In this document: piece after piece, positions 15,332-63,290 of the stretch
Layout: each line of letters starts with the position of its first letter
Numbering within the stretch: position 1 is the stretch's first letter
Assembly (NCBI GenBank): GCA_003971905.1
Contig: RSEE01000001.1
Span: 1,488,001 to 1,552,000, forward strand
Origin: Moniliella sp. 'wahieum'
Lineage: Eukaryota
Direction of reading: 5' to 3'
DNA length: 64,000 bases
Program-made: the position numbers and the translations under genes
Notes under the pieces: generated by a model
The model's database searches: none
Seen by the model: only the letters and a program-made list of their open reading frames with translations
Told to the model about the DNA's origin: nothing

Positions 15332-16657
15332 TTAGGGAAGCAAGGACGTAGCCAGTCGGTCGGGGCGGGCTACCTCCCACCATTCGCTTCCAAACGGGAT
15401 GTAGCGCAAGTGGATCTGAAAGAGCGTGGTAGAGACAGGAGCCATCTTTAATGAGACTCTTTTCGGTATAAGTTCTTTCCAGCGCAGAAGCTTCTTGTTG
15501 GCTGCCATCGTAGCATCATTGCGGTATACCCACGTGTCGTCGGGACCGTCGCGGAGGGCCCGGGACAATCTGTCGTTTGGGTTCGTCATTGATACTTAGC
15601 TTCCTTCGCATTCCGCCTGCTTCAGCCGTCGAAGCCACTTCTCTCGGCAGTCCACAGGCGTAGCAGTCTCCTGATTATATGCAGCACTACGTACGAAGAG
15701 TACGCGACCTTGGCCTCATTTGTACCCAAACCCCTCTCTTCTGCGTTCGACTGCCTTCCATCTGCGATTTGATACCAATGAGGTCCAAAGCAAATCGCGA
15801 AACGGATATTGAGAGCAAGACGTCAGATAATCGAGATAGAGATAGATTCCTAGTGAGCGAAAATAGAGAGTAGTGGGAAGGGAGGAGGAGGTAAGGGAGT
15901 GAGAACAGAGGGGAGAGGTAAGTATCACACCCGGGGGTCTAAAAAAAGAGGGGGGGTCAGGTGTGCCAACCTTCCGCCTACGGGCGAAACAAGTAAGCAT
16001 TATCCTAGCAACTTGAGAGAAGTGTCAGGGAGCGCCAGAGTGTGCGGCTATGCTCTTGGTACACTGCAGTAATATGTGTCCAAGCAATCCTCCAAACGTT
16101 CCAGGTCCCCTCACTCCATAGTCCGTGCGCCGGACACACTCGGTAAAATATAATGCCTTCTCCTTTCGCAATACACAGGTCACGGGGACCGTGTCGAGTC
16201 TGAGAGGGTCTGATCGGAGCTGCGGCCTTCCTGCTCTACCTATACCCAGTAGAGCGCGCTCTCACATCCCAAGTCCAAAACCAAGGGTTACCAAGTCCAA
16301 AACCAAGGGTGGCCGTTGTTGGTCAAACCATACACGGTGGACCGATGAGTGGCCACGCATCTGCGCGACAATTAAAGTCGCCTTGGGCTCAAGTTGAAGT
16401 GGAACACTGAGAGCAGGTGGACGGGAGCTGAAAGGCGATGCCAGATGACAGGAGGCAACTACGTGGAGAAGAGGGTGCCTGTACTGGGTCAATTGGCTGG
16501 AAATGGGCAGACAGTGAACGGGAGAGGCGACGGAAGAGGCAACGGAAGGGGCGACGGAAGAGGCAACGGAAGGGGCGACGGAAGAGGCGACGGAAGAGGA
16601 CGAAAATGGAAGAAGGTGAGGAAAGATCTCCGCCTATACGAGATGGATACAGGCCAT
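15332..16657 (-). CDS. Orphan family copy A (hypothetical, probably spliced)
   Basis: GTNEAKVAY, PVDCREKWLRRLKQAECE, RWKEL, STTLFQIH..G..W..PDRLATSLLP* align with copies B and C; TATAAA near 16695; start tentative. Confidence 0.6.
16526..16600. repeat. 12-bp minisatellite (GGCRACGGAAGR) x6
   Basis: Alternating ggcgacggaaga / ggcaacggaagg units. Confidence 0.9.
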
Positions 16658-16759
16658 TGTAAAAGGGAAAACAGACGCAATAGGGAAGAGGTTTATAAAG
16701 GAAGACAGGAAGACTTTCAAACTGGGGTTTGGTTGCCACAGGTGCAACAGAGAAAGATA

Positions 16760-17950
16760 GATGGAAGCGGCGACGTGGCGGCAATTGTCGCAAGGATACC
16801 CACGACTTTGGTGGCCTCCTATTGGGGCCACCGACTTTATCAGTCAAGTCGCGTGCGCCCACCGTTGGCCACATGGAGTTCAATCCCACCAGTCTTATCG
16901 CGTGGGTTCTCTTCCAGCCACAGGCTACGTCCCGCCCCTGTCCAGTCTTAGCTTTGGCAGTGATTGTTCTCCCGCTGCCTCTCTCATCTCTAAGTCCTAA
17001 TAGATGAGGCTTCAGACAGGCTGAACTATTCCTGACCCCAAGGCGGGCACTCGCAGCCTTGCCCTTCCTGCAGCCGCCTCTGCAATATGCCCAGAGGCCA
17101 CTCCTTGTCCCTGGCTCCGCTCGCACCCGCCCACCAGGTCAAGCACGTAACTACCGTGAGTCGTCCTTCCGTTCTCTACGAAATAGCACTCTACCAACTT
17201 GGTGAGCCCTCTGTGGCCGGGACAGCCCGTGATAGTAAGGATATACATTCTGTAAAAGACCAGTGGGAAAGCCTGGTGCATCGGGCGGATAACCTCCGTG
17301 GGAAAGTGAAAGACGATGATGATGCTTGAGGCACACCTGGTCGTCCTCACAGGCTGTAAGATCTCACATCACGCGCCTGAAAGAAACGGAGGGGCGACAG
17401 GGCCCAAGGATTGAAGTTCCTTCTTGCTTCACGAAGGAGGCTGAATGTCGCAACGCATCTGATTCGACATCCGTCTACGAAACTAATCCTACTACTAACA
17501 CGCCTTCCATGATGCGTTCAACCTCCCGACGAAGATATTCGAGCTTGGGAGTATATACTTTCCCCAATGGTGGGGTAACTGCGAAACATTTGCTATAGTC
17601 GGTGTTTGCTGCGAAGCGCATGAACGCTTATGTATGCTCCACGTGCTCTCCCGTGTTCACCTATGCGCTGCATCTCTCCGATTTGGAAAGCACACAGTGG
17701 ACCGGACGAGTTACATCAGCCCCGAGAGTTCCCTAAGAAAGAAAGATGCCGCCGACGCTGAGATGGACACCTTTTGTTGCTTGACTCGCTCGTCCGTCTC
17801 TGCATGGTACGCTGATTGGGCTCGTGCCGTTTCGTTGCCGCATGCGTCGAGAGACGCCAGCAATGTATATCCAACAGGCGCGGTGGTTGATGCGGGTGCG
17901 GATGATGTGGAGCGTGTGCGGGATGTTCGATTGGGGCCGCTGAGCGCCTG
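16760..17950 (-). CDS. Orphan family copy D (hypothetical, fragmented)
   Basis: Three identical colinear 12-mers shared with 56515-56602; tail ggccaccaaag..gtatccttgcga resembles copy C gaccaccggag..atatcctggcga; boundaries approximate. Confidence 0.5.
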
Positions 17951-18259
17951 AGTAGTCACCGGTCACCCCACCAGAGTCAGTAGTCACCCGACCAGGCGGC
18001 GTCACCTGCCCATTTCAAAAGCTGCGTGCCCCAGGGGCTGGGGTCGAGGCACGGGGGCAGTGCGGCGCGCGCGCGCGACGCGGGCAGCGACACTGGCGGC
18101 GCGCACCGCGGGCGAGACAGGTCACGTGGGCGCCAGCAGCCGCAGCCCGCGCCGGCCGCTGGCCATCGCCTGGGCTCCAGCGGTGGGGCACGCCGAGCGC
18201 CGAGCTGGCCGGCGCCGACGCTGCTCCCAGCATCCACCCCGTCTGCCACGGCGATCGCC

Positions 18260-21200
18260 ATGGCGACCACAACCGCGCCCGTGATGGCTGCGGGCCCGTC
18301 CGCCCTGGACGCCGGCATGCTTGTCCCAGCCGCCGCCGACGCCCAGGCACTGGCCCAGTGGCGCCGGGCGCTCTCCCTGGCCTACTCCCATGCTGCCCTC
18401 CTCACCCCCGACGTGCGCTGGGACGTCGAAGCCACCGCGGCCGGTGCGCCGACCACGTGTATCTACGCACACAAGGGTACGTGCCTCGTGTCCTGCCGTG
18501 CTGGCCATCCTCATGTTGTATGCCTGCCTCTGACCCGCCCTTCCCTCTGCCTGTCCAGCCCTGCTGTATGCGCGTGCCCACCTGCGTTCCATGCGCGCTA
18601 CCTCGCCGGCCCCGATGCTGGCGAGGGTGCTCACGGTCGTTCGCGTGCCGAGAGTGTATCGACTGTCCGTTCCGCCGAGTCTGCTGCCACGACAATCGGC
18701 CCTTCCTCATCCAGTGCCGCGCGAAGCAACGGTGCGAGCCGACCCCTGCATCATCATGCTCCTAGTGCTTGGAGCGGCCTCCGTGCTGCGATTGCCCATC
18801 CATCCACCTTGCACGCCCGCGAGCCTTCGATCGCATCGCCCTCCAAGATCGATGTGCTGACAGGCTTGCGTGGTGGCTCCCTCCAGATATCAGCCCCCAT
18901 CCCCTCCGACCCTGCACCTGATGCAGCCTCAGTCACGACTCTTCTGCCACCTCCCGCATCCAGGACGATGGACGTGCGTGGACCTATCTCTCTGGCTGAA
19001 GGGAGCGCACTTCAGGCAGCACTCGAACAACTGTATACAGGTCATTCTTCCCTAGGTGCCGAGGCTTTTGCTTTTCTCTACGAAGGCCAGTCGGCCGAAG
19101 AGGCAGCAACCCGGCTGAAGCAACGCTCAAGCTCCAGGACGATCTGATGTACATGTGGCGTAGTGGGCTGTTTGCCGATGTGCGCATCCGGGTTTTTCCT
19201 TCTTCCAAGCCCCGCCCCGACTCGGCACCACCTTCAAGACCGCGCTCAGCTCTGCGGGAGATGCACATGGCAGCCAGCAATCGCAGCCGTCAGAGTCTGG
19301 CCACAATGCGCTCTGCCATTGATGGTGGAGACGACCAGAGTATACTCAGCCTCGATCTCGAGTCAGATGCTGATTCCCACTGGATTTGGATCTTGAGTTT
19401 GACGACGATGACCTTGGGATGGACGAGCAGGATGGCATCATTTTTACCGCGCATTCTTTCCTCCTTTCCGCCAGGAGCTCATGGTTCGCCTCGGCCCTCA
19501 AGCATGCACGGCGAAACCAGCCGACAGGACCTCTTGAGCTGGTTTATCTGGACCAGAATTTACGCGAGCCAGCGTTCATTTGGCCATTGCATTTCTCTAC
19601 TCAGGCAGCGTCCGTTTCAGTCTTGGTGGTGGAGGCGCTTCCAATAAGGATGCCCTTTCTCCTTCGGTCGCCCATGCGCCCACAATTGCCGCCTTGTTGC
19701 GACTCAACACACGCGCCTTGGCGGATGCGCTTGCTACCGGCGAGTCTCTCCGGCTTCCTGAACTGAGCGCGTGCGTCGCCTCGGCTTTGGCCGTGCGAGC
19801 GGGGGAGTTTAACTTACGTCGGTCCTCAGCCCCCTCATTTGCAGGGGGGTGGGGAAGAGTGCGCGTGTGCCCCAGGCGCGCCCTGCGAAAAGTGCCTAAC
19901 CAAAGTTACGCGGATCATCCGCGTCGCCTTTCAACCCGCCACGCGCGCTCTTGCGCTTCCCTCTACCCCATCCCCTCCTTTCTCTTCTGCTGCTGCAGAG
20001 AACGCTTTGGCCTCCACTGCAGCTAGATTGCACTTGCGTGCTCGCGCCTCCCAACTCCTCTCGGATCCGGAGTACATTGCTGCCCTTTGGCCTACACGTT
20101 GCACAGGACGTCTCCCGGCGACGACACGCAAGGAACTTGCAGCAAAAGTGTTTGCCCAGGTCCAGGCTCTCTCTCAAGAGGAGGACGGAAGAAGCAGGAG
20201 AACGGGCGGCATATGCACTCCTCCTCGCAGCGCAAAATGTTCAACGGGCAATGAAGGTGCTCGCCTCTGTTGCTGCAACGTCGGGAAAGGGTGCCTCGGC
20301 CCTCCAACAGGTGCAATGCTTACTTCCCACTCTCTCCGCTGGGTTGCCCGTGTACGCCAACTATGCGCCACGGTCGCTCAGGACCTAGGGGGGTTCCTCG
20401 TACAACGTCCCTCGGCGTTGGATGCCTTGTTGCGTTCGCGGGCCTGGCGAACGCTGGTAGCAATTTCCGGCTCTCGCTCTTCTAGCGAAACAGCCTCGCG
20501 TTCTTACTTGGCGCTAACCCAAGACCAGCAGGCGCGTTGGAGGTCATTCGTGTTGTCATGCAGCGTGTTTTGGCTGTGCTCGGCATTGCTTCTCCCAATG
20601 AGCGGATCAGCAAGACCGATCCCACTGCTGCCCCTGCAGTGTATGAAGTCTTAGTTGGGGAAGGGCTTCTTGGTGCAGGATGTGTCCCGCTTGTCCTAGG
20701 GTCGAACGGCGAGGATGAGCCGGTACCCGCTGTACAGGCCGAGATGCAGCGTGCTATTGGAGAAATCAACCAGATGCTCAAGGCACAGTGGACCTTCTTA
20801 CGTACCAAGGGGGCGTTTGATTCCATTAAGCGATGGACTCGGGACGAAATTGCCGTTGCGATCAGTGTTCAGCCAGATGCCTTGCTTTCTCCGCCATCTG
20901 CTGTTGCGAAGGAGACTGAGGGCACAGAGGATGGGAAACCGTCCTTCTCGCCCTCCCCCTTGGCACGGGAGGTGACGGTAAGTGACACAGAGTCCGACAG
21001 TGCTTCTTCCCCTGCACCCCCCGATGGTTCACCCAAACAAGCGACGAGGAGGAAGACGTTCGTCCAGCAGGGCCTATCAATCTCCGTGCCCAAGCGATTA
21101 ACCGCGCCGCCGCCCGGGCCATGTCAGCTACGGACCAAGCCGATCCCGCGTCGTTCCCACCCATAATTGCTATCACTCCCCCCGACGTGGGGAGAAAAAC

Positions 21201-24200
21201 TTCTCCTGCCCCGGCGACCGCAACCCTCCCAGCAGAGGAGCAAGATACAGTTCCTGTTGCACAGCCTGCCCCCCCGCGGTCTCTACCTTGGAGCTGGATG
21301 CATCTCCTGCTCCACCTCCTGCCCTAGCGACTGCAACCGACCTCCCAGCTGAGAAGCAAGACCCAGTTCCTGTTGCGCAGCCTGCTCCCCCCGCGGTCTC
21401 CACCTTGGAGCTGGATGCATCTCCTGCTCCTCCTGACCCAGCCCCAGCTGAGTCACAGCCACTTCCTACTACTGTTTCTACGACGAACCTCATGCGGGAG
21501 AGACGGAGAGTGCCGATTCGCACGACATCCATTGGGTTGATGCGCAGAGGACCCCCATTCGGAAACCGAAGAGGAAGACTTTCCTCTTCGACTTCCATCT
21601 GCTCCGCCCGTGGCTGTGGCGAAAGCTGTGGCGAAAGCTGTTGCGAAAGACGAGTCGAGTTCCGGGCCCCATGATGTGCCGATTCCGTCACATTCATCTG
21701 GGACTCAACCGGTTCAGGCGGTCGAGCCGATATGCGACTCGGGGCCGAGCCAGATCCAGTTCGCGCGCCAGATCCAATCCCCGAGCCAGATCCACTTCCC
21801 GACCCAGGTCCAGCTCCCGAGCAAGATCCGGTTCCCGAACAAGATCCAGCTCCCGAGCCACACCGACTTCTCGAGTCAGATCCAGCTCCCGCGTCAGATC
21901 CAGCCCCAGAGCGAGATCCAGCTCCCGAGCGAGATCCTGTTCCTGAGCCAGATCCAGTTCTCAAGCAAGATTCAGCTCCCGCGTCACATCCAGTTCGCGA
22001 ACCAGAGCCAGCTCCCGCGCCAGCTCCCGAGTCAGATCCAGTTCTCGGGCGAGACCCAGCTCTCGAACCAGATCCAGTTCCCGAGCCAGCTTCGCCTCAG
22101 ACACCATCGATGGAGGTGCACTCGAAGGAGGCGCGCCCGAAGGAGGTGGACTCGAAAGAGGTGGACTCGAAGTCCCCGGCCCCACCATCCAAGGACGCTA
22201 CCCGCAAGGCCCCGATGACACTGTCTCCCACCAGCATTGGGTCTCCGTCTTCCCCTTCCCGTGGGGTACCAGGGAAGCCGATCCGAGTAAGGGTCCTGTC
22301 CCAAGGCGCTCGAGTCCCTCCTGGGTCCCCATCGCGCCAACTCCGGCCTGTGTCGACACATGGTGCGCCTCCCAGCTCACCGACGAGCTCTCGTACATCT
22401 ACGACAGCCCTCCGCCCGACACATAGTGCACTTTCCAGCTCGCCGTCGAGCCCTCGTACATCTACGGCAGGACACCGCCCGATACATGGTGGGCTTCCCA
22501 GTTCACCGCCGAGCCCTCGCGCATCTACGGCAGCCCTCCGCCCTGGCCCACGGACGTCGAGTTTGAGTACATCCAGGACGCGCGCCACCTCAGGCGCTGA
22601 GCGCCCCTCATCCGCCTTAAGCGCGCGGGGACCACCGAAACCTACGTCTCTGCAGACCAAGACGGCCAGACCATCCACGGCGACTAGCCGCACTCCTCGG
22701 CCGAGCCCCCCTACTCCGACCCGTCCACTGCCCAGCCCCGATGCTCGACCCATCCGTACCTCCCTTAGCCGGGCCCCGAGCCGTTCCCCTCAAGCTACAA
22801 GCCCCGCCACGCCTACGGCCTCTGGTCCAGCGTCACGGACCCGCCTGACGCCCAGTCCCTCACCTGGCACGACGCGGCCTAAGTCTGCTACAACGCTGAG
22901 GTCCAAACCTGCTTCCCCACCCACCATGACCAAGCCACTTCCCACACTCGCTTCGGTATGTTTCCTTCCCCTTTTTTCATCTGCCCACTGACCCGTTTCA
23001 GCCCCCGCGCATTCGAACCAACAGTACCGTCTCTCGTACCGAAAGGGAGAAGGCTGTTCCGTCTCGCCTAAGCCGTGTAAGCTTGCCGAAGGAAGCACCG
23101 AAGGACCGCTTGCCTGTGCGTCCTCCTCCCTCGCCCGCACGTGCACGCACTCTCTCTGCTGCCACCCCATCTTCTCGCACCCTCTCGCGTGGAGGGGTCC
23201 CCCTCCCCCACTCCAGGGGGCAAAAGTTCTCCTGTACCACCCGGAAAGATTGCTGTTCGGCGCCTCGTACCTGCCCGTCGGGGTACAGAAGGGAGAAGAG
23301 TGTGGCCATTCAATCCCCTCCTCATCCTCATCCTAGGCGCTCTGAGCCAAGCGGTGCAACCACTCCCCTTGTTGCCCCTCTTGCTGTTGATGACAAGGCT
23401 GTGCCTGCTCCTTCCTTGCCTTCTGTACCGCCTCCTACCGAGGTCGCATCGTCCTCGACTGCGATGACGCCGCCTACTGCTAATGCGGATTCCGGGTCCG
23501 ACGCGCTTGCCAACCCCGAACCCGAAATCACACGTACGATGGATACGCCGGCATCGATACCGGCGACACCCGTTACGATTGAAGAGCCATCTGTCGTCGA
23601 TTCCTCGCTTGAGACGACGCCTCAACACACGCCAACCCAGGTCGAACATCCCATCTCGCCTCCTCATGCGCTTGATACAATGCCCGAACCCACGCCCAAG
23701 CCCGAGCTTAAGATCGAGACCGAGTCCAAGCCCGACACGGAGCCTGAGCTCAAGATCGATACCGAGCTCAAGCCCGACACCGAGCTCAAGACCGAGCCCG
23801 AGCACATGCCCACTCTTCCCTCAACTCCTGCTCTGGAGCCCTCTGTTGAGCCAAAGCCAGAGCCAGAGCCTGAGTCAGAGCCTGAGCCAGAGCCTGAGCC
23901 AGAGCCTGAGCCAGAGCCAGAGCTAGAGCCAGAGCCAGAGCCAGAGACCGAGTCCAAACTCAGTATTCCCTCAGTTCCTGCTCTGGAGCCCGCTGTTGAG
24001 CCAGAGACAAAGCCAGAGCCCGAGACCGAGGCCGAGCCCACACCCGAGACCGAGCTCAAGACCGAGACCGAGCCCAAGCACACTATTCCCCCACCTGCTG
24101 TGGAGCCCGCTGTTGATCCAGAGCCCGAGTCAGAGCCAGATCCAGAGCCCACGCCCGAGACCGAGCCCAAGCCCACTATTCCCTTAGCTTTGCTCTGGAG

Positions 24201-25756
24201 CCCGCCGCTGAGCCAATGCCAGAGCCAAAGCCAGAGCCAGAGTCCAAGCCCAAGTCTGACACCGAGCCCCAACCCACTATTCCCTCAGCTCCTGCTTTGG
24301 AGCCCGCTGTTGAGCCAGAAGCACAGCCAAAGCCAGAGGCAGAGGCAGAGCCAAGAGCCAGGGAACCCGAGCCAGCGCCGGGGCCGGCGCCAGCGATGGA
24401 TCTGAGCTCAAATCTCGCTATGCTTCCCAAGCCCGAAATGGGGAGTGAGGATCTCGAACCCTCCGACTCGGCCACGATGACGACCGCGGATGCGAGTGCT
24501 AGTGAGGTGGAGGCAGATGCCCACGGAGCTGCGATCGTTAGTAGCACCTCCGGTGATACCATCCGTCCCCAACATCGGATGGAGGAAGAACCTCCGGTGC
24601 CGCCGGTGCCTGTGGTGCAAATGCCGCTGCCGTCTCACCAGCGGGACACGGGGACGGGCATTGAAGTTGGTGGTCCCGACCCGAGCGACTCAAGTGTTTC
24701 GATCCTTACTCCCTCCCCCTCTTGGCCGAACGACTCGATTGCCTCGGTCGACACGAGCGTGTCTGCATCCCGGCCTACGTCAGCAGCCACCGATCCGCAT
24801 GGAAAGTTGCCCACCATTGAGGCCGAGTCGGTCGACGAAATGGCGGAACCAACGCGGTTGAGCCAAGGCATCTCGTGTGTGATCGCACCGAAGATCGGTC
24901 GCTTCCGTGCGTTGATCAAGTACATTGGTCCTGTCCCCGGTCGCCAGGGGGTCTGGGTCGGGGTCGAAATCCCTTCCCCCTTTCCCAGGGCGCTGGAGGC
25001 GCTCCCCTTGGCCCGCACTATTCGAGAAACGAGCATGCAGCTGGACCGGGACGGAGCGATTCGAACCGATGGCTCCATTGAAGGCCACCACTTCTTCTCC
25101 CTCGGAGACCGCGCGACGGGAACAAGCCAGTGGCTCTCTCCCTTTGGCTCGCCTATGGTTGATCGTGCTCGCAGCCGCTCAAGCACAGGTGGTATGCCCC
25201 ATCCTTCGTCCATGACCCATTTCCTCGCTGGAGTGGCGGCAGTACTTCCACCATCCGTGGCCGCCGATCTCAGCCCTGGCGACCCGCGTCCTCGCCCGCC
25301 CTTGCCCTCCGCATGGACCTCTCGCCCGGGGGAGCAGGACGAGACACTACCGCAGTCGCAGTCGCACACACACACGATGAATCTACGTGGCATCCCCACC
25401 TCGGCAACCGTGCAGCATCGCCAGGCACGTTGGGCCCGCGTCCAGCGTCTCCTCACCCTATCTGGGGGTAGCGTGTGGGATGGGCCGCCCCCGACAGGCT
25501 GGCCAGCCTTGATCCTGGGCGCTCCTCCCCCCATACTCGTGCCACTTCGCCTCTCCACCCCTTGGGTCGGGCAGGCGGACGGAGGTGGTCGGGTGCATCG
25601 TCGGGCCCAGGCACGCGTTCCTTGACCGATTCGCCACCTCTTTCGTTCCGCAGCACTTCCCCCTGTCGGTCATGGTGCCGCAGGGACAGCACAAAATCCG
25701 TCGGTCTTTTCATCCGTCCCCGGGACGACGTGCTCGTTGTGGTTGGGCCGGATTGA
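18260..25756 (+). CDS. Large BTB-like + C-terminal CAP-Gly protein with long Pro/Glu/Ser repeat linker
   Basis: [40 protein letters not shown] (BTB-like); [39 protein letters not shown] (CAP-Gly-like); many indels, probable introns near 18477 and 22955. Confidence 0.75.
21745..22090 (+). repeat. 18-bp coding minisatellite (EPDPAP/EPDPVP)
   Basis: gagccagatccagytccc-type units, about 19 copies. Confidence 0.9.
23680..24370 (+). repeat. Coding (PE)n repeats with higher-order PALEPAVEP units
   Basis: gagcca runs; ctctggagcccgctgttgagcca block recurs about 5 times. Confidence 0.9.
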
Positions 25757-26832: not shown

Positions 26833-26925
26833 TGCTTCAAAGGGGAATCGAACCCCTGTCATATCGAGACGTAGAAGCTTGAAGCTGCTTGGCAACGATA
26901 TAGTATACCACTAACCCATTGAAGC
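26833..26925 (-). tRNA. tRNA-Gly(GCC) with 22-nt intron (26868-26889)
   Basis: Acceptor GCTTCAA/TTGAAGC, anticodon stem TATCG/CGATA with TT-GCC-A, T arm AGGGG-TTCGATT-CCCCT, 71 nt spliced, TTTT just downstream. Confidence 0.95.
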
Positions 26926-26949
26926 CCGATGAAATAGCCTTCGTGACTT

Positions 26950-27600
26950 CCATTGCAAGGGGCCCGTTCCTATATACACGTTCTACGGGCGTTTTTCCGC
27001 ATGTACCGCACCTTCCGGTACGCAGTCTTGTCCTTCTTTGACGCCAAAAGCCCCTTAAAGCGTGAGCCTCGTCTTCTATTCTTGGTGGTCCTCCAAAAAT
27101 GCTCGAGGTCTCCATTCACTCTCCATAATGCGGGCACCTGCAATTCTTCCTTTTGAGTCGCGTCTCATCCTCTTCTTCCCTTACATCAGTCGGTTCCTTG
27201 AGAACATGAGTGTGCCCAGCTCTTTGAGAAGATGAGGGGTTGCCCCTGAAGGAGCGCACAATCAGCTTGTTGAGGATCGGCTATCGCACAGAGCTTCATG
27301 TGCAACGTCCCCCGCCCCCGAACTTTAATTTTCTGGGCGCGCACAGGTGCATCACACGCCCAAAGACGTACTCCACGAGAGTCATGACCTCAGTCTACAT
27401 TTGCACTTGTTGCGTAAAGAACGCAACAGGGGCACAGAGCATGACGGAGACCAATCTGGACTTGTTGTATTGACGCACTGTGAGCTCAGTCGAAACAACG
27501 CACTTGGCTGTCGACGTGGAGGGTGAGCCTATAGAAGAGTTGTCGGCAACCCCGTTTTGTGCAGATTTTGCTTCGGGAAACGGAGAGACAAAGGAGCCTC
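26950..27600 (-). pseudogene. Orphan family copy E (fragment between the tRNA genes)
   Basis: Colinear blocks shared with copy F: cacgcccaaag (27355/56549), ctgaagg (27246/56417), tgtg.cca.c.ctttg (27211/56383). Confidence 0.4.
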
Positions 27601-27645
27601 AAGTTGAGCCCACAGGCAAGGGTTAGACCCAGAAGAACAAAAATG

Positions 27646-44199: not shown

Positions 44200-44959
44200 G
44201 GGTCTCTCACACACTAGCCACACTCATGGCTAGTGTCTTCCTGAGTAGCAGAGCAGAAAATAAGAGCGATAGGGAAGTACTGAATCGAGTGAAGTGCGAC
44301 AAGCGTGGTGGTCGCGACACACACACTGAACACGGAGTAAAGGAGGAAAGGGAGGCCGGGAGAGGAGGCCTGGAGAGGAGGCCGGGAGCCGTCTGGACTG
44401 CCTTAGGCAATGACCCCGCACTGAGGCCCCTGGGTCAGCCCCACCAACCTATCTGTGTACCCATCACACTTTATCAGAGGATAGGACGAGACGCGACGGA
44501 GGGCACAGCGCACCAACTACCGCGTGATGGGGCCTGAGCAATCGGATGATCAGAATGGAGGTGGACCACACGCTGCGCGACACGGGAACGCAGGAGGCGC
44601 AGAGTGCGTACCGGAGGGTGGTGCATTAGAGCACCCCGACGCCTCTGGAATGCCGGGGGAAGGAGCTGCTTCGGCTGCTGGAACAAGCAGAATGCGACAA
44701 GAACGCCAAGGACCAAGGACGCACTCAAGAGCCGTTTTCCCCCTGGTTTTGACGACGCGAGGATACTACGGCACCAAGATAGCGGGCAAGAGATGTTTGC
44801 ACGCTGGAAGGATTTGGCTACTGACTCTCCATGGAAATGGTTCCTCGCTCGGATGTCAACCACACATTCATCCGTGTCCACACGCATTACCTCGGGTATG
44901 GGGACGGATGGCGGGCACCAGAGGGTCCTGATCTCCTGGCGATTCCCCTGGTTCCTTAA
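44200..44959 (+). CDS. Orphan family copy B (hypothetical; 5' end undefined)
   Basis: MEVDHTLRDTGTQEAQSAY, PLECRGKELLRLLEQAECDK, RWKDL, MSTT..PEGPDLLAIPLVP*; clearly alignable in DNA to 57548-57900 (-). Confidence 0.6.
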
Positions 44960-45575
44960 CGGAGGGGTGGCGCTACTAAGCAAACACGCAAGGTGAACGG
45001 GTCGGTTTTGGCGTAGCGCTTTCCTGTCCCATCCTTAAGCTCTGTCAATGATATGGATGAAGAGAAGAGAGGCGTAGCGTTTCCCTATCCCAGACTTAAG
45101 CTCTTTTTCAATGATATGGATGCAGAAGAGAGATTCAGAGAGGTCAAGTGTACAACTGACCATATACAGCTGTTGGTCCCACAAGGCAATAACCAGGTCA
45201 GGGACATTGGGCAACGCGGATCCCTCCTCCTGCTCTCCCAGTGGGAGAGGGGGATCCGTCTCTTCCTTTCAGAAACAAACGTTCGGGCAAGTGAAACTGC
45301 GGGCGAGAGAGGCAGGCGGACAGCTGGAGAGGGGGAGCTTCTCCTTCCTTCAGAAACAACGTTCGGGCGAGTGAAACTGCGGGAGCGAGAGAGGTGAAGG
45401 CAAAGGCGAAGGCGATGACGATGGCGAAGACGAAGGTGAAGGGAAGACGATGGCGAAGACGAAGACGAAGACGAAGACGAAGACAAAGAGACGAAGAAGG
45501 TAATCAAGCCGGGAGCAGAATAGGCGAGAGAGGCGGTTGGGGGAAACGAACCGTCAAGTCGAAGCTAGAATGGTG

Positions 45576-53652: not shown

Positions 53653-54296
53653 CGAGTACAATTCCCTCCTCCTCCAACGTAGATGCCTCTCGTCCTTCAT
53701 CGACGGGGGCTTCGATGCCCCCCTCCCAGCTTCCACCTGTCTTGACGCGGAGTGCACCTTTGCCCTCGGTGTCGCCCGGCGGCAGCGCCCCCTTCGCGTT
53801 AACGAGGTGGAAAGTTCAAAGTTCCCTTGTTGCATTGCCTCTCCACGTCCACCTAAATACGCCTACGTAGATCATCGTAGTCTCTGGTGCGGCTTCGGGC
53901 TGGACAGAGCTAACAGAGGCAGAGTCAGGAGACGTTTCGATGTATCAAGCAATGCACACAGGCGGGATGAGATTTTCTAACCCGGTGCGACTGTTCGAGT
54001 GTCGAAAGATTAGACCAGCTAACAAGAGGACATACTATGTATCTGGCCTGCACCTACGTTCAAATTTGCATACGGAGCATGCCATGAAGTAGAACAAGAA
54101 CCGGTCCTCCGCTCGTGTGCCCCCTTCATCGCACACATACATGTCGAAGGGAGAGTGAGGAAACGCAGCACTGAGGACAACAGTGCGAACACGTCTCGAT
54201 CGGATTATAGAATTCTGCATGTGCCGCTGTGCCCCGCGCGATTACTACCGTACGGAAGGTGGTAACCTGTGCGCAACGAGACGAACCAGGCAAGCA

Positions 54297-54356
54297 GGGT
54301 ATGGAGTATCCATACCCAGTATCCATACCCAGTATCCATACCCAGTATCCATACCC
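54297..54356. repeat. 13-bp tandem (AGTATCCATACCC)x4 preceded by an inverted partial copy
   Basis: Four exact units 54305-54356; GGGTATGGA at 54297 is the reverse complement of TCCATACCC. Confidence 0.95.
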
Positions 54357-54838
54357 CTCTTGCTGGCCCAGGACGTATGGAAGAGGGGGGGAACAAGCGA
54401 CAGGTGTGTCAGTGGTAGCATGAGGCAGACCGCTGCTGTTTTCTACACGTAAATCACGTCACCCTCAAGCGCATTGGACGGAGGCGCGGCGAAATCGAAT
54501 TCAATTGCAATACTGGCACACCACGTCTCCGCAACATGTGTTGCTCTCCTTTCCTTTGCACTATTCCCTTCCTCTCACCGATCATCGCCCTCGACTGACC
54601 ATTGCGCCCCCCTTGCCCAGCATGACCGAGTAGGAGACTTGACGAAACAGTTTTTGTTTCATCAGGACCGCCACCGCGCCATTCCTACGGTCCAGGCCTC
54701 TGTGGCGCCAACCTCTTCAGAAAGGAACCAAAAGCCGAGACGACGCGGCCGGAACCCCCTGTTGTGCAACTTTCAAAACAGAATGGGGCTCGGCCGTGAC
54801 GCGTGACGCGTGAGGCTCGCTGGGGTCCGGAACCAACC

Positions 54839-54902
54839 AACCCTAGTTATGCGTGAAAATAAACGGAGCAATAAATTGCCGCAGTTCACGTTGTTTAGGG
54901 TT
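54839..54902. promoter_or_regulatory. Inverted pair of telobox/Tbf1-like motifs upstream of RPL8
   Basis: AACCCTAG (54839) and TTAGGGTT (54895), 76-140 nt before the ATG. Confidence 0.5.
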
Positions 54903-54977
54903 ACGCAAGTGTTTCCTTGCTCTTTGTCTGCTTTGCCCCTACTCTTGTTCTTGTCCCCGACCCTGCTAGCAACAACA

Positions 54978-55783
54978 ATGGCGCCCTCCAAGAAGAACCC
55001 CAAGCTCCCGTCCAACCTCAAGGCGGCGTCTTCGGCTAGCAAGAAGCAGGCCAACCCCTGTTCGAGGCTCGCCCTCGCCACTTTGGCATTGGCCAGAACA
55101 TCCAGCCTGCCCGCGACCTGACCCGCTTCGTCAAGTGGCCCGAGTACATTCGTCTCCAGCGCCAGCGCGTTATCCTCAACTCGCGCTTGAAGGTCCCCCC
55201 TGCGCTTGCCCAGTTCAGCAACACGCTCGACAAGAACACGGCCACTGCCCTGTTCAAGTTGCTCAACAAGTACCGCCCAGAGAGCAAGCAGGAGAAGAAG
55301 GCTCGTCTGGCAGCTGTTGCCGCCGATGTCGCGGCCGGCAAGAAGGCTGACCCTAAGGCCGACGGCAAGAAGCCCCTGTTTGTCAAGTACGGTCTGAACC
55401 ACGCCATTGCTCTGATTGAGGCCAAGAAGGCTTCCCTCGTCGTTCTCGCCGACGATGTGGACCCGATTGAGCTCGTCGTCGCTGTGCCCGCGCTCTGTCG
55501 CAAGATGGGCATTCCTTGGGTCATTGTCAAGGGTGGCAAGGCCCGTCTGGGCCAGGTGGTCCACAAGAAGACCGCGGCTATTGCTGTGGTTCAGGACGTG
55601 CGCGCTGAGGACCAGCGCGAACTCGCCAACCTCGTCGCGGCTGCCAAGGCCAACTACGTTGACAAGTACGAGGAGTCCCGCCGCCACTGGGGCGGTGGTG
55701 TCCGTGGCAACAAGTCGGCCGACAAGCTCCGCAAGCGTGCCAAGGCCGCTGGCACCACGGTTGCTGCCCTCGAGAACAACTAA
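54978..55783 (+). CDS. RPL8: 60S ribosomal protein L8 (eL8/L7a)
   Basis: [61 protein letters not shown]; one indel near 55058; no intron seen. Confidence 0.98.
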
Positions 55784-56199
55784 GGTGTTGTCTTTGCCCT
55801 CTCGTAAGGACTTGTGTTCGGCAAGAGCATCCCCATTCGGTATGGGATCGTAGTCGGTTGCACGTCCTTGTTATGCCCGCATCTTTCGATGCATTCAAAA
55901 ATGGATATGTTCCAGCTCCATGCCCGTATGCGCCGTCGTCGCGCCATCACCATTGGCGCGCGTAAGATGTAACATGTAACATCCCTCATAGCTGCTTGTG
56001 GAAGTAGCTTTTTGAATGTTCTGCGCACGATGACCGCGGGAGGGAACGCTTTTGGTAGCACGTGGGTGGTCCCTTGACCAGGTGTGTCACATGTCAATGA
56101 TCAATACAGCAGCCACGGGTGACATGCCGAGACAGACAACCTTTTATATAGTACGAGGAAGTGCTATCGGATGATATTCATAGTCCCTTCGCAGCCTCT

Positions 56200-57280
56200 C
56201 CGCTTGCATCTGTTGGGGTGGTAGTGTTAGGCCTCCCCTGCACCCCTCAGTGAATCGGTGACGCTCTCGCTTAGCCGGTCGAAAGAGTTCCGAAGGATTT
56301 CCGCTCGCAGGGCGCGCGCGCCCTGCTCGCTCCATCTCCCTTCTCTCTCACCTGCCTTCTTTCCTTCAGATGCTTGTAGACTTGTGGCCACCCCTTTGCC
56401 TTCACGCCTGCAGTGTCTGAAGGCTGCTTTGCAGCTCATTATAGGACCTCGAGTGCTCCCAAGTCGCACTCTATAGCAGCTTCGTCTGCTTCGCTCTGTC
56501 AACATCTACGTATACGCAGCCTTGCCACGCGTGCAGCCGCCTCGGCTTCACGCCCAAAGGCTTCTCCTCGCTCGGATAGCCCAGGCTCGAAACTACCGTG
56601 AGCCGTCTTTCACGTAAGGGACTGTACCCCACCAACCTGAGTGAGCCCCCTGGCAGGGCCCGCCTGCGACAGGGTCGTCGTAATTCACGGTACATGGATC
56701 GAGCCCGCCACCTCTGGACCATCGATCATCCTTACTCCATCCTTCCACCAATCCACTTTGTCCTCCCCTCTCTTCTTGTCCTCCCCCCTCTTCTTGTCCT
56801 TCCCCCCCCACCTTATTTTTGTCGCAAAGACCCCAATTGCTTTCCACATCTCCTCCTTGCTCCACCGCTCCGCGGCAGTCTTGTAGCCAGGTCGACGGCC
56901 GTGGGGGCACAAACGTGGGAGTGGATTGCAGGGGCACCGTGTGCCAGTGTGGTCGTTGGTGCCGCAATGGGGGCTCCGACGGTGAGTACGGGTAGGGGGC
57001 ATTTGAAGTGGGTGGAGGGACGCGTCGACGCGACTCTGTCATATGCCCGATAGTCGGCGCAGCCAGCCCCGTCACGTGCAGGTGGGGGAGCAGTAGGGTT
57101 GCAACTTTTTGGTGGGTCCTGCCATATGGTAATAGAAGATGCTTAACTTTAGTTAGACTGTGTTCAACGTGCTCAACGTGCTCAAAGTGCTCACCGTTGA
57201 TCCTGCAGCTGCTCCTCTCAGTCGATAGAGTACATTGTGGGTACGTTTCCCTGGCCAAGAGGCGAAATCATGAGGTCCAT
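56200..57280 (-). CDS. Orphan family copy F (hypothetical, fragmented)
   Basis: Shares cgcagccttgcc, tgcagccgcctc and aactaccgtgag in order with 17052-17160; TATAA..CACAATGG start context similar to copy A. Confidence 0.5.
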
Positions 57281-57547
57281 TGTGAAGAGTTATAAAAGAC
57301 TGAGAGAAAGAGAGGGAAGATGGCGGTGCTATTCAAGGAGAGGATGAGGCCATTATTAGGGGAAGATCGTATAGGGAGTGTGGTAGACAGCTAGAGCGAT
57401 AGGAGACAAGGGGGCCCAATGTGCCAGGGTCGCTATGCATGATGCATGACTAATGGTTGCTACAAATTCAGGGATCGATTCCCCAATCGACTCGAGCCAT
57501 CATTTTCCTGATCATTTCCCAACTGTAGTATACTTCGGCGTCTTCTT

Positions 57548-57900
57548 TTCATCCTCTTCGGCATCCATATCATTGACAGAGCTTAAGGCTGGGACAGGGG
57601 GAACGCTACGTCTAAACCGAACCGTTCATCTTGCGGGGGTTACTTGGAAAAGCCAACAAGATTAAGGCACCAGGGGAATCGCCAGGATATCAGGACCCTC
57701 CGGTGGTCGCCATCCGGTCCCGTACCTTAGGAAGCGCGTGTGGACACGGACGAACGTGGTAGACATCTGAGCGAGGAACCGTTTCCATTGAGACTCTCAG
57801 TAGCCAAATCCTTCCAATGCGTAAATATCTTGCCCGCTGTCTTGGTACCGTAGTATCCTCGCGTCTTGTCAAAACCAGAGGGGGAAGAACGTCCTCTCTT
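57548..57900 (-). pseudogene. Orphan family copy C (3' part plus 3' flank)
   Basis: Reverse complement aligns throughout with 44727-45133; HWKDL..QMSTTFVRVH..PEGPDILAIPLVP* (stop 57662). Confidence 0.7.
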
Positions 57901-58623
57901 CTATCAAGAAACCTTATAGGCGTTACCAAGAAACTATAATGCCACCAAAAACTTGCTATCAAGAAGGCCAAAAAAGGTATAAGTTGAGGGGATATTGGTT
58001 CGTGGCAAAAGCAAAGGCAAAGCAAAAAGGCATGTTATTGGACCCAGGCTCATCATCCGCACCAGTACGTCCCCATGACTAATAGCGTCATCGGACGTGC
58101 ATTGAAGACCAGGGCCGGGGAGAGGAGGAGAGCCCGGGAGAAGCCAACATCGCTATACATACAAAGGTCAAATTAGCGCCAGGAGCTTATACGAAGCTAT
58201 TATATCTCTGACTGTGTTTCCTCTCCACCTTGCCCAGTATAAAAACAATCTTCCGTAGCGTAACGCGTAAAGCGTACCACGTTGAGTTTGACCTTGATAT
58301 GTATGGAAGCCCAGTCCTGTGTATCCTCTCGGTTAAACGCGTTCGACGTTAAACCGAAACGTTAACGCGTAACGCGAAACCATGTGCTCTCACCTGTATT
58401 AGGGTTATCCGTGTGATCTCCTTGGGCCTCGGCCTCAGGGCCTCAGGTCCCTCAGGGATCGTCCTGCAAGCTGCAAGTGCATGCCTTGCGCGGATTATTA
58501 GCCCGATTCGTTCACAAACGCTTGCCGAGCGAGTGTGGTGGTGCATGGTGTGCATGGTGCAGCGCGTCTCCTCTTCCTATAGCCTGCAGATTCTTTTGGC
58601 GGATGTTCTTCGGTGCGTGCATG

Positions 58624-58874
58624 TGTTGACTGTGATCCTCTGGCTCCCAGTCGGTAGACCAGGTTCGCCTCGGTTCCATCGGCTTCCACGCTGGCGTCCT
58701 GCGTGTCACTGTCCCTGTGCCCTGCACTCTCTCCTGTGACTCACTGTCCCTGTGCCTAGTCCAGCCTCCTATATAGATGCCTCTGTACCCAGACCCAACT
58801 CTGGCTCCAATCCATCACCTTCTCCTCATCCTTCTGCCCGTCCGGCTCCCTAGGCCAACAGAGCTACAATCTGA
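58624..58874 (+). repeat. LTR-like repeat 1
   Basis: tgttgactgtgatcc...ctatatag...ggccaacagagctacaatctga. Confidence 0.9.
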
Positions 58875-59485
58875 TCCCCCGGAAGGGGAGCGCTCTTCAA
58901 GCAAGCCCACCCCCAAGCCTACAAGCCCAAGCTAAGCCGCCTGCCAATTCATCCGGGGCACCTGGGGAAAGGATGGGGGGGGTGGTCACCCAACTTCTTC
59001 CACTCCTCTTTTTCAACAACAAAGAGAACCCAAACAGATCAAGACGGTTGACGCATAGCGCCCGTTCATTTCCCATGCCCAATGGACCCCACTGGCACCA
59101 GGCATGCGGAACCAAACAACTACCAAACGCATCCAATTTTGATGCCAAACGACCTTGGACCGCATTTACTCCAAGTTTCCAATTTTCTTTCACTACACTA
59201 TAACTGGTGCTTTTACTTTTGCCCACCAAATCGCTTCGGGGCGCAACCCCTACTACTTTTACTTCTAAGACTTCTACAAGCATCTGGCGGTCGCACAATA
59301 CACCAACCACAAGCGCTCGGCTCGTTCAGGTGTCATCCTGGACAGCGGGGGTGTAGGCCAGTCGTGTGGCCATGCACAACTCCAGGCCATTCGTCCCGGT
59401 TGCCACTCAAGTCCTCCCCTCTCTACATCCACTGGCAGGAGCTCATCCCACAACCGATGTCTCCGGGTTCCCTGGCCAGCGGGGG

Positions 59486-59738
59486 TGTTGACTGTGATCC
59501 TCTGGCTCCCAGTCGGTAGACCAGGTCGCCTCGGTTCCATCGGCTTCCACGCTGACGTCCCTGCGTGTCACTGTCCCTGTGCCCTGCACTCTCTCCTGTG
59601 TGACTCACTGTCCCTGTGCCTAGTCCAGCCTCCTATATAGATGCCTCTGTACCCAGACCCAACTCTGGCTCCAATCCATCACCTTCTCCTCATCCTTCTG
59701 CCCGTCCGGCTCCCTAGGCCAACAGAGCTACAATCTGA
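59486..59738 (+). repeat. LTR-like repeat 2 (shared)
   Basis: Near-identical to repeat 1. Confidence 0.9.
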
Positions 59739-59845
59739 TCCCCCGGAAGGGGAGCGCTCTTCAAGCAAGCCCACCCCCAAGCCTACAAGCCCAAGCTAAG
59801 CCGCCAAGCCCACAAGACACACCCGTCCTCCCGCCCAACAACACC

Positions 59846-59921
59846 ACCGCCACAATCGGCACCTTACCGCCACAATCGGCATACTACCGCCACAATCGGC
59901 ATACTACCGCCACAATCGGCA
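59846..59921. repeat. 20-bp minisatellite x4 inside the long internal region
   Basis: accgccacaatcggca core at 59846, 59866, 59886, 59906. Confidence 0.95.
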
Positions 59922-60635
59922 CACTCGTCCCCCACAGATGGGGCAATGATTTTAGGGACAACACACGACGGAACAAAACGTGTCGGGTATCGTCAACGAG
60001 ACGAAATTCCTCCAACGACAAAACGGCGCAGGCGAATCGCAGAAAGCGGGGGTGGCTGCTCATCAAGTGCCCCCCCACGGCTACACGCCCCGGATTGCCA
60101 ATTCATCCGGGGCACCTGGGGAAAGGATGGGGGGGGGTGGTCACCCAACTTCTTCCACTCCTCTTTTTCAACAACAAAGAGAACCCAAACAGATCAAGAC
60201 GGTTGACGCATAGCGCCCGTTCATTTCCCATGCCCAATGGACCCCCTGGCACCAGGCATGCGGAACCAAACAACTACCAAACGCATCCAATTTTGATGCC
60301 AAACGACCTTGGACCGCATTACTCCCAAGTTTCCAATTTTCTTCACTACACCTATAACTGGTGCTTTTTACTTTTGCCCACCAAATCGCTTCGGGGCGCA
60401 ACCCCTACTACTTTACTTCTAAGACTTCTACAAGCATCTGGCGGTCGCACAATACACCAACCACAAGCGCTCGGCTCGTTCAGGGTCATCCTGGACAGCG
60501 GGGGGTAGGCCAGTCGTGTGGCCATGCACAACTCCAGGCCATTCGTCCCGGTTGCCACTCAAGTCCCCCTCTCTACATCCACTGGCAGGAGCTCATCCCA
60601 CAACCGATGTCTCCGGGTTCCCTGGCCAGCGGGGG

Positions 60636-60886
60636 TGTTGACTGTGATCCTCTGGCTCCCAGTCGGTAGACCAGGTTCGCCTCGGTTCCATCGGCTCCAC
60701 GCTGACGTCCCTGCGTGTCACGGTCCCTGTGCCCTGCACTCTCTCCTGTGTGACTCACTGTCCCTGTGCCTAGTCCAGCCTCCTATATAGATGCCTCTGT
60801 ACCCAGACCCAACTCTGGCTCCAATCCATCACCTTCTCCTCATCCTTCTGCCCTCCGGTCCCTAGGCCAACAGAGTTACAATCTGA
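60636..60886 (+). repeat. LTR-like repeat 3
   Basis: Near-identical to repeats 1 and 2; followed by catg. Confidence 0.9.
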
Positions 60887-62269
60887 CATGGTTTTAAGAG
60901 AAGTGACAGCATGTGAGTACGGCATGTGACATGTGATACGGGACAGTCACGTGCGCCATCAAGGGATCCCACGTTCTACGACCCAGCGGAGCCAGGCGCA
61001 TCAAATATGCAAGGGACTAACAACGCCCAGGGCACTGCTCGTGTCGTGTCCATCACCGGCATCGCCTCGGACTCACCCGGGGGGAGGAGGCCGGAGGCTT
61101 GAGGGACAGTTCAGGCGCTCAGGCGCTCAGGCGAAACCCCGAGGGGACGGACAGCCGCAAGGAGATGGGCGGCTGACGTAATGGGACCGGCACCAGGCCA
61201 GCCTAAGACTTTGGCAAGCCGTGGGCGCCAGGACGGCGGCGCAGAGGCACGGGGCCGCAGGGGGGCCGGCAGGGCAGTACACAGCACGGCTGGCACGGCG
61301 CAGCAGCTGCTGGGCTTGGCGCCAAGCCCAGCAGCCAATGCCACAGCTGCCCAATCACATGCACGCCCAGCCCACCCTTCCCGCCGCCAGTCGTCCACCC
61401 TTGCCAGCGCCCTGGGTGCGGTCGCCGCTCCCACCCCCGCCCCCACCACCACCCTCTCCGCTCGCTGCTCCCTGTCCCCCCGCGCGCCCCCGCCCGGCCT
61501 CCTCGGTCCTCCTTGCGCCCATGCCCCGCCGCGCGTCTCTTCGGCCATCTGCGGCCGCAGCCATCGCCGCCTTCCTCGTCGCCCTCGCCCCCCCCCAGCC
61601 CCAAGGACCTGCATCGCTCCTCGTCCCCCTCCTCCCCCCCGACAAGCGCACCAGCTTTTGTGGGGCAGCAGTACCAGCGACCGCGCTAAGCCTCGTCTGG
61701 CGCCTACCACCAGCGCATCAAGGCCTCGATGACCTACGTTGCCCCGCTCCCCTTTGGCCGCCCACGTGCTCGGTACCGACGAGGGCAGCAAGGCCCTGTC
61801 CTCCTCTCACTCGGCCAAGGCCAACTCTTCCCGCTCCCGTTCCAAGACGCGCCGCTCCAACTCTCCCAAGAGCGCCTCGGGCCGCCCCGCCCCCACCTCG
61901 TCCGAGGTGCCCGCCAACCCCTTTTCTCTCAATTGGCCTAGGCCTTGCTTGCCTCGACGCTCCCCTCGTCTTCTTCTTCCCCTGTCCCCACCCACCACCC
62001 TTCCCAAGGCAGGACACGTCCCCACATCTCCTCAGCCCGGTCCAGCACCTCGTTCAAGCCATCTCCGCTTGAAACGAGACAACCTTGGCGCTTCTCAGAT
62101 CTCAACCGGCGCGCTTGTCTCGTGCTTGACTCGTGACCGGTGTCCCCCACCGACCATTCGCTTGGCCTTTGGAAGATCCCCCTCTGCAGCGCACACCTTT
62201 CCTTACTTACCCAGCTATTCTCTTACCCACCCTCTGTACACTATATTCGAGCCACGTACTCTTTCATCA

Positions 62270-63290
62270 ATGTTTGAATGGTGTGATGCAGGTGAGGGAT
62301 CGGGTTGAGGCGATGTGTTCGCTCTCAACGCGAGCGGAATGAAAGGAGGCAAGAGCTGGATGGACAGAGCGGGACTCGCCTTGTCTCCCAGCTGTTTTTC
62401 GTGATGCGGAGCGCAGTCACTCTAGCCACTAGTCTTGGAGCAGGTTGGTACATGCACTCTTTGCCTTTATCGAAAGCATATTGTACTCCGCATCACACTG
62501 CCCCAGGGCAAGTGAGGCTTGAGCGGGCCAACCCTGGGGGAACTTAAGCAAACAAAGGGCGGCGAAGTCGATCCACGGTGTCAATCATCGCCCCGTAGCA
62601 GGCAGTCGAGTGCGCGTGTCACAATGGATAGCATCATTGTGCGGATCAAAATCGCTGTAGAGCGTATGCTGCTACATATCAATCGTCCTGCCTGCCCTTT
62701 GGTCTGCAGAACAGAGATCAGGGATGAAGAGCTGGGGTGAGTACAGTATTGTGGGGTAGCCAGATTAATTGCATCGCTCGTCCATCTCCTGTTGGGAAGA
62801 AAGTATGACTTGGTAGCTCCCAGATTCGGAATCGGAAGAGGAATCGGAAGAGGAAGAGGAGGAGGAGGAGGAGAAGACCAACGAGGATGAAGGTGCGAAA
62901 GCGCGATACTTCAGCCAAAAACAGTTTGCCTGCCGTGGGGGTTATCATCCTACGCACTTCTTCCGACTCTTGGAGATTACCGAGAACACCGAGATCGAGC
63001 TGGAGGTACGAGAAGCACCAAGTACGAGCTTTCCCGTCCGGCAGAACGGAACGAGATGACGCCCACACAAAGTCAAAGATGGCGAGCACAGAGGGGTAGA
63101 GCAACAGATGAAAAGGAATACAGGTTTACGAATTTCATGACCAAGCCCAATCAGGAGACCCGCCATTCTCGCGTGAAGAAAAGCGCATGCGGTTCGAGCG
63201 AAGTCCAAAGTAGCACCATTCCTTACCGGCCAACATCCACAACAGCAGAGAGAACGCCGTCTAGGGCCGTGATGGAGGTGACAGGGTGAC
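62270..63290 (+). CDS. Orphan family candidate copy G (hypothetical, with acidic insert)
   Basis: CRG..FRLLE, RAFPSG..SKMASTE, R*KG appear in the same order as copy B CRG..LRLLE, RFPPG..TKIAGKE, RWKD; probable intron from GTGAGT at 62737. Confidence 0.35.

Follow-up and report, generated by a model that had tools for sequence, protein, structure and literature searches.

What lies in the apparently empty spacers between the housekeeping genes of this locus? From the letters of the 64,000-nucleotide stretch of Moniliella sp. 'wahieum' DNA analysed here (the window), the original prediction had read an unrecognised multigene family with about seven diverged copies, A to G, and had offered three origins for it: effector-like, allorecognition- or drive-like, or the cargo of an unknown mobile element. 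The window does contain an unrecognised family of protein-coding sequence, restricted to one lineage and locally dense, with five pieces in 64 kb. Below we describe these pieces and their one relative, and then ask whether they are genes, remnants of genes or remnants of something else.

Results

Three copies share a 3' end with a single outside relative

All 14 peptide strings on which the family had been proposed are present at the places and on the strands given for them (one short string occurs twice). The homology of A, B and C is significant by nhmmer, with E values of 4.6e-22 for A-B (covering 15313-15728 in A), 1.7e-61 for B-C and 2e-9 to 6e-9 for A-C; Smith-Waterman on DNA, unlike nhmmer, missed A-C (z 0.8). 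By blastn, B and C align over 336 nt at 81.5% identity (E 1.3e-81). With a cut-off of 36 bits, a tblastx self-comparison recovered B-C, with matches in all six frames, and none of the other pairs that had been claimed.

With the read-through of copy A as the query, HMMER was run exhaustively against 1.84 billion protein representatives and returned a single real relative, P0003. This 'hypothetical protein' of 279 aa is intact and is encoded on a metagenome contig of 1,174 bp. Copy A (15338..15822, minus strand) corresponds to P0003 residues 126-278, with 3 frameshifts and 1 in-frame stop, and its terminal stop lies at 15332-15334; it matches P0003 with a tblastn E value of 3.9e-9 and a frameshift-tolerant score of 194, the control maximum being 63. 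The copy nearest to P0003 is B, with 123 identical residues (tblastn E 5.3e-42, 61% identity; frameshift-tolerant score 552). Its coding-like part (44366..44953, plus strand) covers residues 82-278 with 5 frameshifts and 2 in-frame stops; the similarity is strong only from about residue 120 (44497), and the frame originally assigned to the middle of B was partly off. The coding-like part of copy C (57668..57914, minus strand) covers residues 198-278, has 2 frameshifts and is free of in-frame stops (tblastn E 8.3e-21; frameshift-tolerant score 256). The 5' limits of the three copies thus differ (about residue 126 in A, 82-120 in B and 198 in C), and the 3' end is common to all, at residue 278 and the stop. 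The stop position said to be shared by A, B and C is real, and it is also that of P0003.

The likeness of B and C runs for about 110 nt beyond the stop to a common terminus, after which comes a GA-rich tract. In B, the stop, the 3' untranslated tail (about 110 nt in common with C) and the purine-rich tract occupy 44957..45133 on the plus strand; in C, the stop and a 3' tail as in B, followed by a purine-rich tract, lie at 57547..57667 on the minus strand, as seen in the B-C alignment and with a profile of the tail. The last 61 bp of the B tail are tandemly duplicated at 45010-45133 (TRF period 61, 2.0 copies, 82% matches). In the window the tail profile matches at 44990-45073, 45070-45137 and 57547-57632 only, and it detects no further solitary 3' termini. 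No convincing flanking direct repeats (target-site duplications) were found at A, B or C; one 11-bp repeat with a mismatch at copy B is estimated to lie within chance.

P0003 is an orphan with a Cys/His motif

Searches for longer proteins or near relatives of P0003, including one with residues 1-125 as the query at E values up to 10, returned only P0003 itself. No longer protein with the P0003 tail was found, nor were relatives in locus scans of metagenomes, viruses and prokaryote genomes. As the original prediction had it, no domain is recognised: neither P0003 nor P0001 matches any Pfam family at E values up to 1, zf-RVT included, and a PDB sequence search with P0003 gave no match at E values up to 10. 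A literature search, in sources available in part, brought up nothing on such a family. P0003 carries a C-x1-C-x7-H-x3-C motif at residues 66-80, with an L-S-x-x-Q...L-Q-L-R-T stretch before it, and continues for about 200 residues after the motif. In a language-model comparison, the named clusters closest to it carry zf-RVT (PF13966), with scores of 0.90 for the whole protein (42% of cluster members carry zf-RVT) and of 0.89 twice for residues 1-125 (28% and 22% of members), in a range of this protein atlas (0.89-0.90) that is rated as leads or as 'often chance'. An AlphaFold2 model from an 11-row alignment (mean pLDDT 53, pTM 0.24) was too poor for a fold search.

Two internal fragments are added and three candidates dropped

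Two further pieces, E and H, are detectable at the protein level only. Copy E (26978..27473, minus strand) had been listed among four weaker copies, D to G, and is the one of them that stands. It corresponds to P0003 residues 45-179, in which the region of the Cys/His motif is kept, is broken by 4 frameshifts and 5 in-frame stops, and lacks the 3' third. Its frameshift-tolerant score of 85 was reached by none of 60 shuffled-protein controls (mean 37, maximum 59; z 9.3), and four colinear weak HMM matches lie on its strand. Copy H (53986..54226, plus strand), absent from the original list, lies in the spacer between a DUF2408 gene and a ribosomal L7Ae-family gene and corresponds to residues 66-139 at about 31% identity, with 1 frameshift and no in-frame stop (tblastn E 5.5e-4; HMM 15 bits, i-E 0.0012). 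Its frameshift-tolerant score of 88 was again reached by none of 60 shuffles (z 11.4). The motif is partly visible in both E and H. A common 3' end with variable 5' truncation is found in three of the five copies, E and H being without the 3' end.

Regions D, F and G match P0003 on neither strand (z between -1.2 and 0.9) and were rejected as family copies. G is tied to the A/D region solely through a CT-rich, low-complexity microsatellite. A weak match in D, at 16935-16964 (z 4.3), was not confirmed. The family therefore counts five copies in the 64-kb window (A, B, C, E and H) and not about seven.

The copies are broken, and part of their divergence arose under selection

Every copy is partial, spanning 74 to 197 of the 279 residues of P0003, and residues 1-44 and the start codon are present in none. 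Together the five carry 15 frameshifts and 8 in-frame stops. Indel errors of the assembly may account for some of the frameshifts: in a 14-3-3 gene of the window a stretch of 33 codons is out of frame between two compensating indels. A, B and C, however, have 10 frameshifts in about 1.3 kb, as against 2 in 0.8 kb in the 14-3-3 gene; six of these ten are 2-nt insertions, and most lie outside homopolymer runs. In four copies the stops and frameshifts exceed what assembly indel errors explain; H has one frameshift.

In codon alignments guided by P0003, most differences fall at third positions, and dN/dS is 0.47 for B-C (80 codons), 0.44 for A-B (145) and 0.27 for A-C (79), values that are not near 1 and that are biased low because protein similarity guided the alignment. 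Part of the divergence between the copies thus arose under protein-level selection. The frame first proposed gave no third-position excess in a codon-position test and a tie for A-B in a frame test; these tests had no clear outcome because part of that frame was wrong. A MAFFT alignment of all 21 in-frame fragments put the weak ones in the wrong place and was not used. No CpG depletion or RIP-like bias was seen.

The copies lie singly in gene spacers

All copies sit in lower-GC spacers between Pfam-supported genes, at a local density of about one relic per 13 kb. None of the 137 ORFs of at least 56 aa in the five spacer regions encodes a reverse transcriptase, an endonuclease or another transposable element (TE) domain; against Pfam, these ORFs gave sub-threshold noise and the neighbouring 3HCDH gene only. 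A sub-threshold TrAA12-like match at 16376-16948 (plus strand) falls on the translation of a GRGD-type microsatellite and was dismissed. Rfam has one match in the whole window, a tRNA.

Discussion

On balance, we are inclined to regard A, B, C, E and H as dead, incomplete copies of a single interspersed repeat that coded for protein. This was most likely a mobile element, and probably one with LINE-like 3' ends. A, B and C would be the 5'-truncated 3' ends of a non-LTR (LINE-like) element, consisting of the end of its last ORF, a 3' UTR of about 110 nt and a purine-rich tail, and E and H would be older internal scraps. Active master elements, presumably LINE-like, may have been copied and inserted, and the resulting copies would then have decayed neutrally in intergenic DNA, probably without any present function in the window. 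An unknown mobile element is thus the best-fitting of the three origins first offered, and no match to a known TE protein was found.

The comparison with known non-LTR elements cuts both ways. Like the ORF2 tails of Tad1-, I- and Jockey-type elements, A, B and C have one 3' end, variable 5' ends and a simple purine-rich tail; as with LINEs generally, the copies are decayed, dispersed and intergenic. As a lead, the protein atlas places zf-RVT closest among the named clusters. The C-x-C-x7-H-x3-C motif of P0003, placed after a Q-L-R-T-like stretch, resembles what we take to be the Cys/His tail of non-LTR ORF2 proteins. In contrast to LINEs, no reverse transcriptase, endonuclease, Pfam zf-RVT match or target-site duplications were found here, and the lack of a 3' end in E and H is not accounted for by simple 5' truncation. 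The roughly 200 residues that follow the Cys/His motif are, moreover, long for a LINE tail. Neither the copies nor the 1,174-bp contig has room for a reverse transcriptase, which may therefore still exist in a full-length copy.

Could the copies be conserved non-coding DNA, regulatory or RNA elements whose translations are a by-product? The likeness of B and C beyond the stop, their six-frame tblastx matches and the missing third-position excess in the frame first proposed would suit such elements. However, P0003, which comes from another sample, can be aligned with the copies over as many as 197 residues and shares their stop, and this match largely refutes the non-coding account; E and H are seen at the protein level only, third positions differ most once the frame is right, and Rfam has no match at the copies. 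We find this account hardly credible. It is also very unlikely that the copies form a functional multigene family, be it effector-like or drive-like, with frames that seem broken only through assembly indel errors. Such errors are real, as the 14-3-3 gene attests, copy C has no in-frame stop and dN/dS is 0.27-0.47; but indel errors do not directly make the 1, 2 and 5 in-frame stops of A, B and E, and the frameshift rate of A, B and C is above that of the 14-3-3 gene, with six of ten being 2-nt insertions, mostly away from homopolymers. There is also no start, P0003 residues 1-44 are uncovered, and the spans are partial and different. In smuts, the clustered secreted-effector families consist of intact genes that have a start codon and a signal peptide and usually stand in tandem. 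The family described here resembles them in being lineage-specific, without a known domain and present in several copies in a small region, whereas its copies are incomplete and disrupted and lie one by one among the housekeeping genes. That they are seven genes, or an effector-like or allorecognition-like expansion, as had been envisaged, is not supported: the copies are partial, all five are frameshifted, and A, B and E have stops.

A further alternative, which we consider unlikely, is that the pieces are pseudogenes of a lineage-specific host gene like P0003, duplicated or retro-copied and then decayed, with no mobile element of their own. In favour of this, a relative has the 279-aa ORF intact, TE domains were found nowhere, dN/dS is below 1, and the common 3' end, UTR, purine-rich tail and 5' truncation are marks of processed pseudogenes as well; such pseudogenes of host mRNAs also decay neutrally. 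Their parent, however, would here be an orphan, since the protein has a single relative in 1.84 billion representatives and so is not a conserved cellular gene, and no intact parent copy is present in the window. For pseudogenes of one gene, a density of five pieces in 64 kb is very high, and identities of about 31% to 62% imply many rounds over a long time. A self-propagating element fits this density and age range better.

The interspersed-repeat reading can be taken further. Tentatively, and as something possible rather than likely, the element may represent an undescribed mobile element clade specific to the smut-related lineage, with a Cys/His knuckle and a C-terminal domain of about 200 residues without detectable relatives in public protein space, and at the density seen here it might dominate the repeats of this genome. 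More boldly, the 279-aa ORF could be read as a selfish gene family that stands on its own and not as the tail of a longer protein. Because the family is an orphan, with one relative, a full-length genomic copy could establish a new retroelement lineage among Ustilaginomycotina-like fungi and offer a way into the repeat history of a compact genome. For annotation, the 'empty' spacers are best treated as holding repeat relics and not missed genes or effectors, and assembly indel errors have to be separated from true pseudogene decay. The direct interest of the window itself, being that of dead DNA, is modest. The family is not the only repeat in its spacers: D and F share a separate DNA repeat of about 180 bp, at 17047-17236 and 56510-56673 (E about 1e-10 to 1e-11).

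Relatives of the family in the window

The original prediction was of a family of about seven diverged genes (A to G); a real, unrecognised repeat family is indeed present, in the form not of some seven genes but of five decayed fragments, copies A (15338-15822, -), B (44366-44953, +), C (57668-57914, -), E (26978-27473, -) and H (53986-54226, +). All 14 of the peptides first quoted are found at the places assigned to them, and the homology proposed among A, B and C is significant by nhmmer (E 4.6e-22 for A-B, 1.7e-61 for B-C and about 2e-9 to 6e-9 for A-C), with B and C 81.5% identical over 336 nt. Smith-Waterman alignment with shuffles of the seven claimed regions (21 pairwise DNA comparisons) gave three clear outliers, A-B (z 17.9), B-C (z 129) and D-F (z 17.3); A-C (z 0.8) is missed by this scoring, though nhmmer detects it. 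The A-G pair (z 6.7) is a CT-rich microsatellite and not family homology.

The read-through translation of copy A (P0001, with X at its one stop) was searched against 1.84 billion representative proteins and returned two matches at E up to 0.001. P0002, a repetitive 551-aa protein matched in six short stretches, is taken as spurious. P0003 (279 aa), a singleton annotated as "hypothetical protein", comes from a 1,174-bp JGI/IMG metagenome contig, and its last 110 residues align with copy A to a common end point (E 6.5e-5 library-wide; pairwise E 2e-11). When searched against the window by tblastn, P0003 recovered B (E 5.3e-42, 61% identity), C (E 8.3e-21) and A (E 3.9e-9) and, unexpectedly, the new copy H (54071-54226, +; E 5.5e-4). 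The protein sense first proposed is correct. The same search shows that the central part of A, B and C had initially been read in a frame other than the true one. Coding tests that used this partly wrong frame gave mixed results: codon-position differences for A-B were 32/80, 21/80 and 30/77, and in a frame-score test it came out level with another frame for A-B and best for A-C only.

A purpose-written protein-to-DNA local aligner that allows frameshifts was used to compare P0003 with 168 tiles of 1.5 kb, on both strands. Copies B, C, A, H and E scored 552, 256, 194, 88 and 85, respectively, against 55 for the top unrelated tile and a reversed-protein control with a mean of 39.6 and a maximum of 63; none of 60 shuffles of P0003 reached the score of E (z 9.3) or of H (z 11.4). 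Copy E therefore survives as a relative of P0003. The other claimed members, D (16.8-17.9 kb), F (56.2-57.3 kb) and G (62.3-63.3 kb), drop out, with z from -1.2 to 0.9 against P0003 (both strands, 15 shuffles each); the resemblance of G is low-complexity only. D and F have about 180 bp of DNA in common (17047-17236, + and 56510-56673, +; nhmmer E about 1e-10 to 1e-11). The indels between the two stretches are non-triplet, and each stretch has copy A or C some 0.9 to 1.2 kb away, in a non-colinear arrangement. Since it shows no link to P0003, we treat D/F as a separate short repeat, unclassified.

Decay and anatomy of the copies

In P0003 numbering, B covers residues 82-278, convincingly from about 120 (five frameshifts, two in-frame stops), A 126-278 (three and one), C 198-278 (two and none), E 45-179 (four and five) and H 66-139 (one and none). 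Frame breaks by themselves are no proof of a pseudogene here, because the assembly contains indel errors, as the 14-3-3 gene (5771-6568, -) shows: two compensating indels enclose 33 out-of-frame codons in the most conserved part, across which the expected conserved sequence is readable in the neighbouring frame. This break is an assembly indel error, and it makes other frames in the window suspect. The decay of the copies is nevertheless largely real, since in-frame stops are not a product of indel errors, frameshifts are denser (10 in about 1.3 kb of A, B and C versus 2 in 0.8 kb of the 14-3-3 gene), and 2-nt insertions, mostly outside homopolymer runs, account for six of those 10.

The stop position is common to A, B and C, and the likeness of B and C extends about 110 nt past it to a common terminus, followed by a GA-rich tract; the final 61 bp of B are in tandem duplicate. 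The 5' limits of A, B and C all differ; E and H come from the interior of the sequence and stop short of its 3' end. A, B and C have no convincing target-site duplications at their flanks, and no CpG depletion was seen.

By the Nei-Gojobori method, with codons aligned using P0003 as guide, which pulls the values somewhat downward, dN/dS is 0.47 for B-C (80 codons), 0.44 for A-B (145 codons) and 0.27 for A-C (79 codons). Third codon positions are the most divergent in all three pairs (differences at positions 1/2/3 of 12/14/23, 66/55/78 and 39/37/47, respectively). Despite the downward bias, these data indicate that part of the divergence dates from a protein-coding state. Coding-type divergence would be expected if masters that were active and still evolving had given off copies over a long period.

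Probable nature of the family

The best reading of the five fragments is that they are dead mobile-element (or retrocopy) remains. Sequences of this kind are already known; the family itself is new and an orphan. None of the sequence tests put a name to it: word-seeded protein searches returned only P0003, locus scans (metagenome, viral and prokaryote-genome) gave no relative, and a PDB sequence search found no match. The structure model (pLDDT 53) was unusable. Pfam revealed nothing TE-like among 137 spacer ORFs.

P0003 carries a C-x1-C-x7-H-x3-C motif (residues 66-80), preceded by an L-S-x-x-Q...L-Q-L-R-T stretch and kept at least in part in copy E, which we take to resemble the Cys/His tail of non-LTR retrotransposon (LINE) ORF2 proteins. 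This tail is zf-RVT (PF13966) in Pfam. In the protein atlas, the nearest named neighbours are zf-RVT-bearing clusters, at 0.90 for whole P0003 and twice at 0.89 for residues 1-125, scores that the tool rates as leads. Motif and neighbours, both weak leads, point the same way. Together with the common 3' end, variable 5' ends, simple tail, intergenic scatter and decay, they lead us to favour relics of a LINE-like element. Four points count against this reading: a reverse transcriptase is seen nowhere here; Pfam, zf-RVT model included, gives no match to P0003 or P0001; about 200 residues follow the motif in P0003, which is long for a LINE tail; and the 3' end is missing from E and H. A serious rival to the LINE-like relics that we favour is that the copies derive from an orphan host gene, as processed pseudogenes or as dispersed duplicates.

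Genomic setting and other features

The window is eukaryotic DNA of 59% GC, in which Pfam places ordinary genes (UPRTase, 14-3-3, M16 insulinase, a CAP-Gly protein, glutamate decarboxylase, GMC oxidoreductase, F-actin capping alpha, DUF2408, a ribosomal L7Ae-family protein and 3-hydroxyacyl-CoA dehydrogenase); the claimed copies lie in intergenic spacers of lower GC (52-57%). The strand of copy E also carries a tRNA gene (26833-26925, -; Rfam 54.8 bits, 93 nt), probably intron-bearing and missed by ARAGORN, whose 5' end comes 53 bp downstream of where the alignment of that copy ends. The spacers hold short tandem repeats, perfect or nearly so, shortly after copy H (54305-54356, 13 bp x4) and at 16269-16310 (22 bp x1.9) and 16518-16599 (12 bp x6.8). 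Most self-similarity matches in the window stem from 21200-24400, where long Pro/Glu/Ser-rich ORFs, built from degenerate repeats of 18, 63 and 117 bp, lie upstream of a CAP-Gly domain gene. Finally, 58623-60886 is a tandem duplication whose units are near-identical (96-98%) and offset by 862 and 1154 bp. Pfam matched neither of the two ORFs scanned in it (59624-60508, + and 58897-59325, -). Either the duplication is recent or it is an artefact of the assembly.
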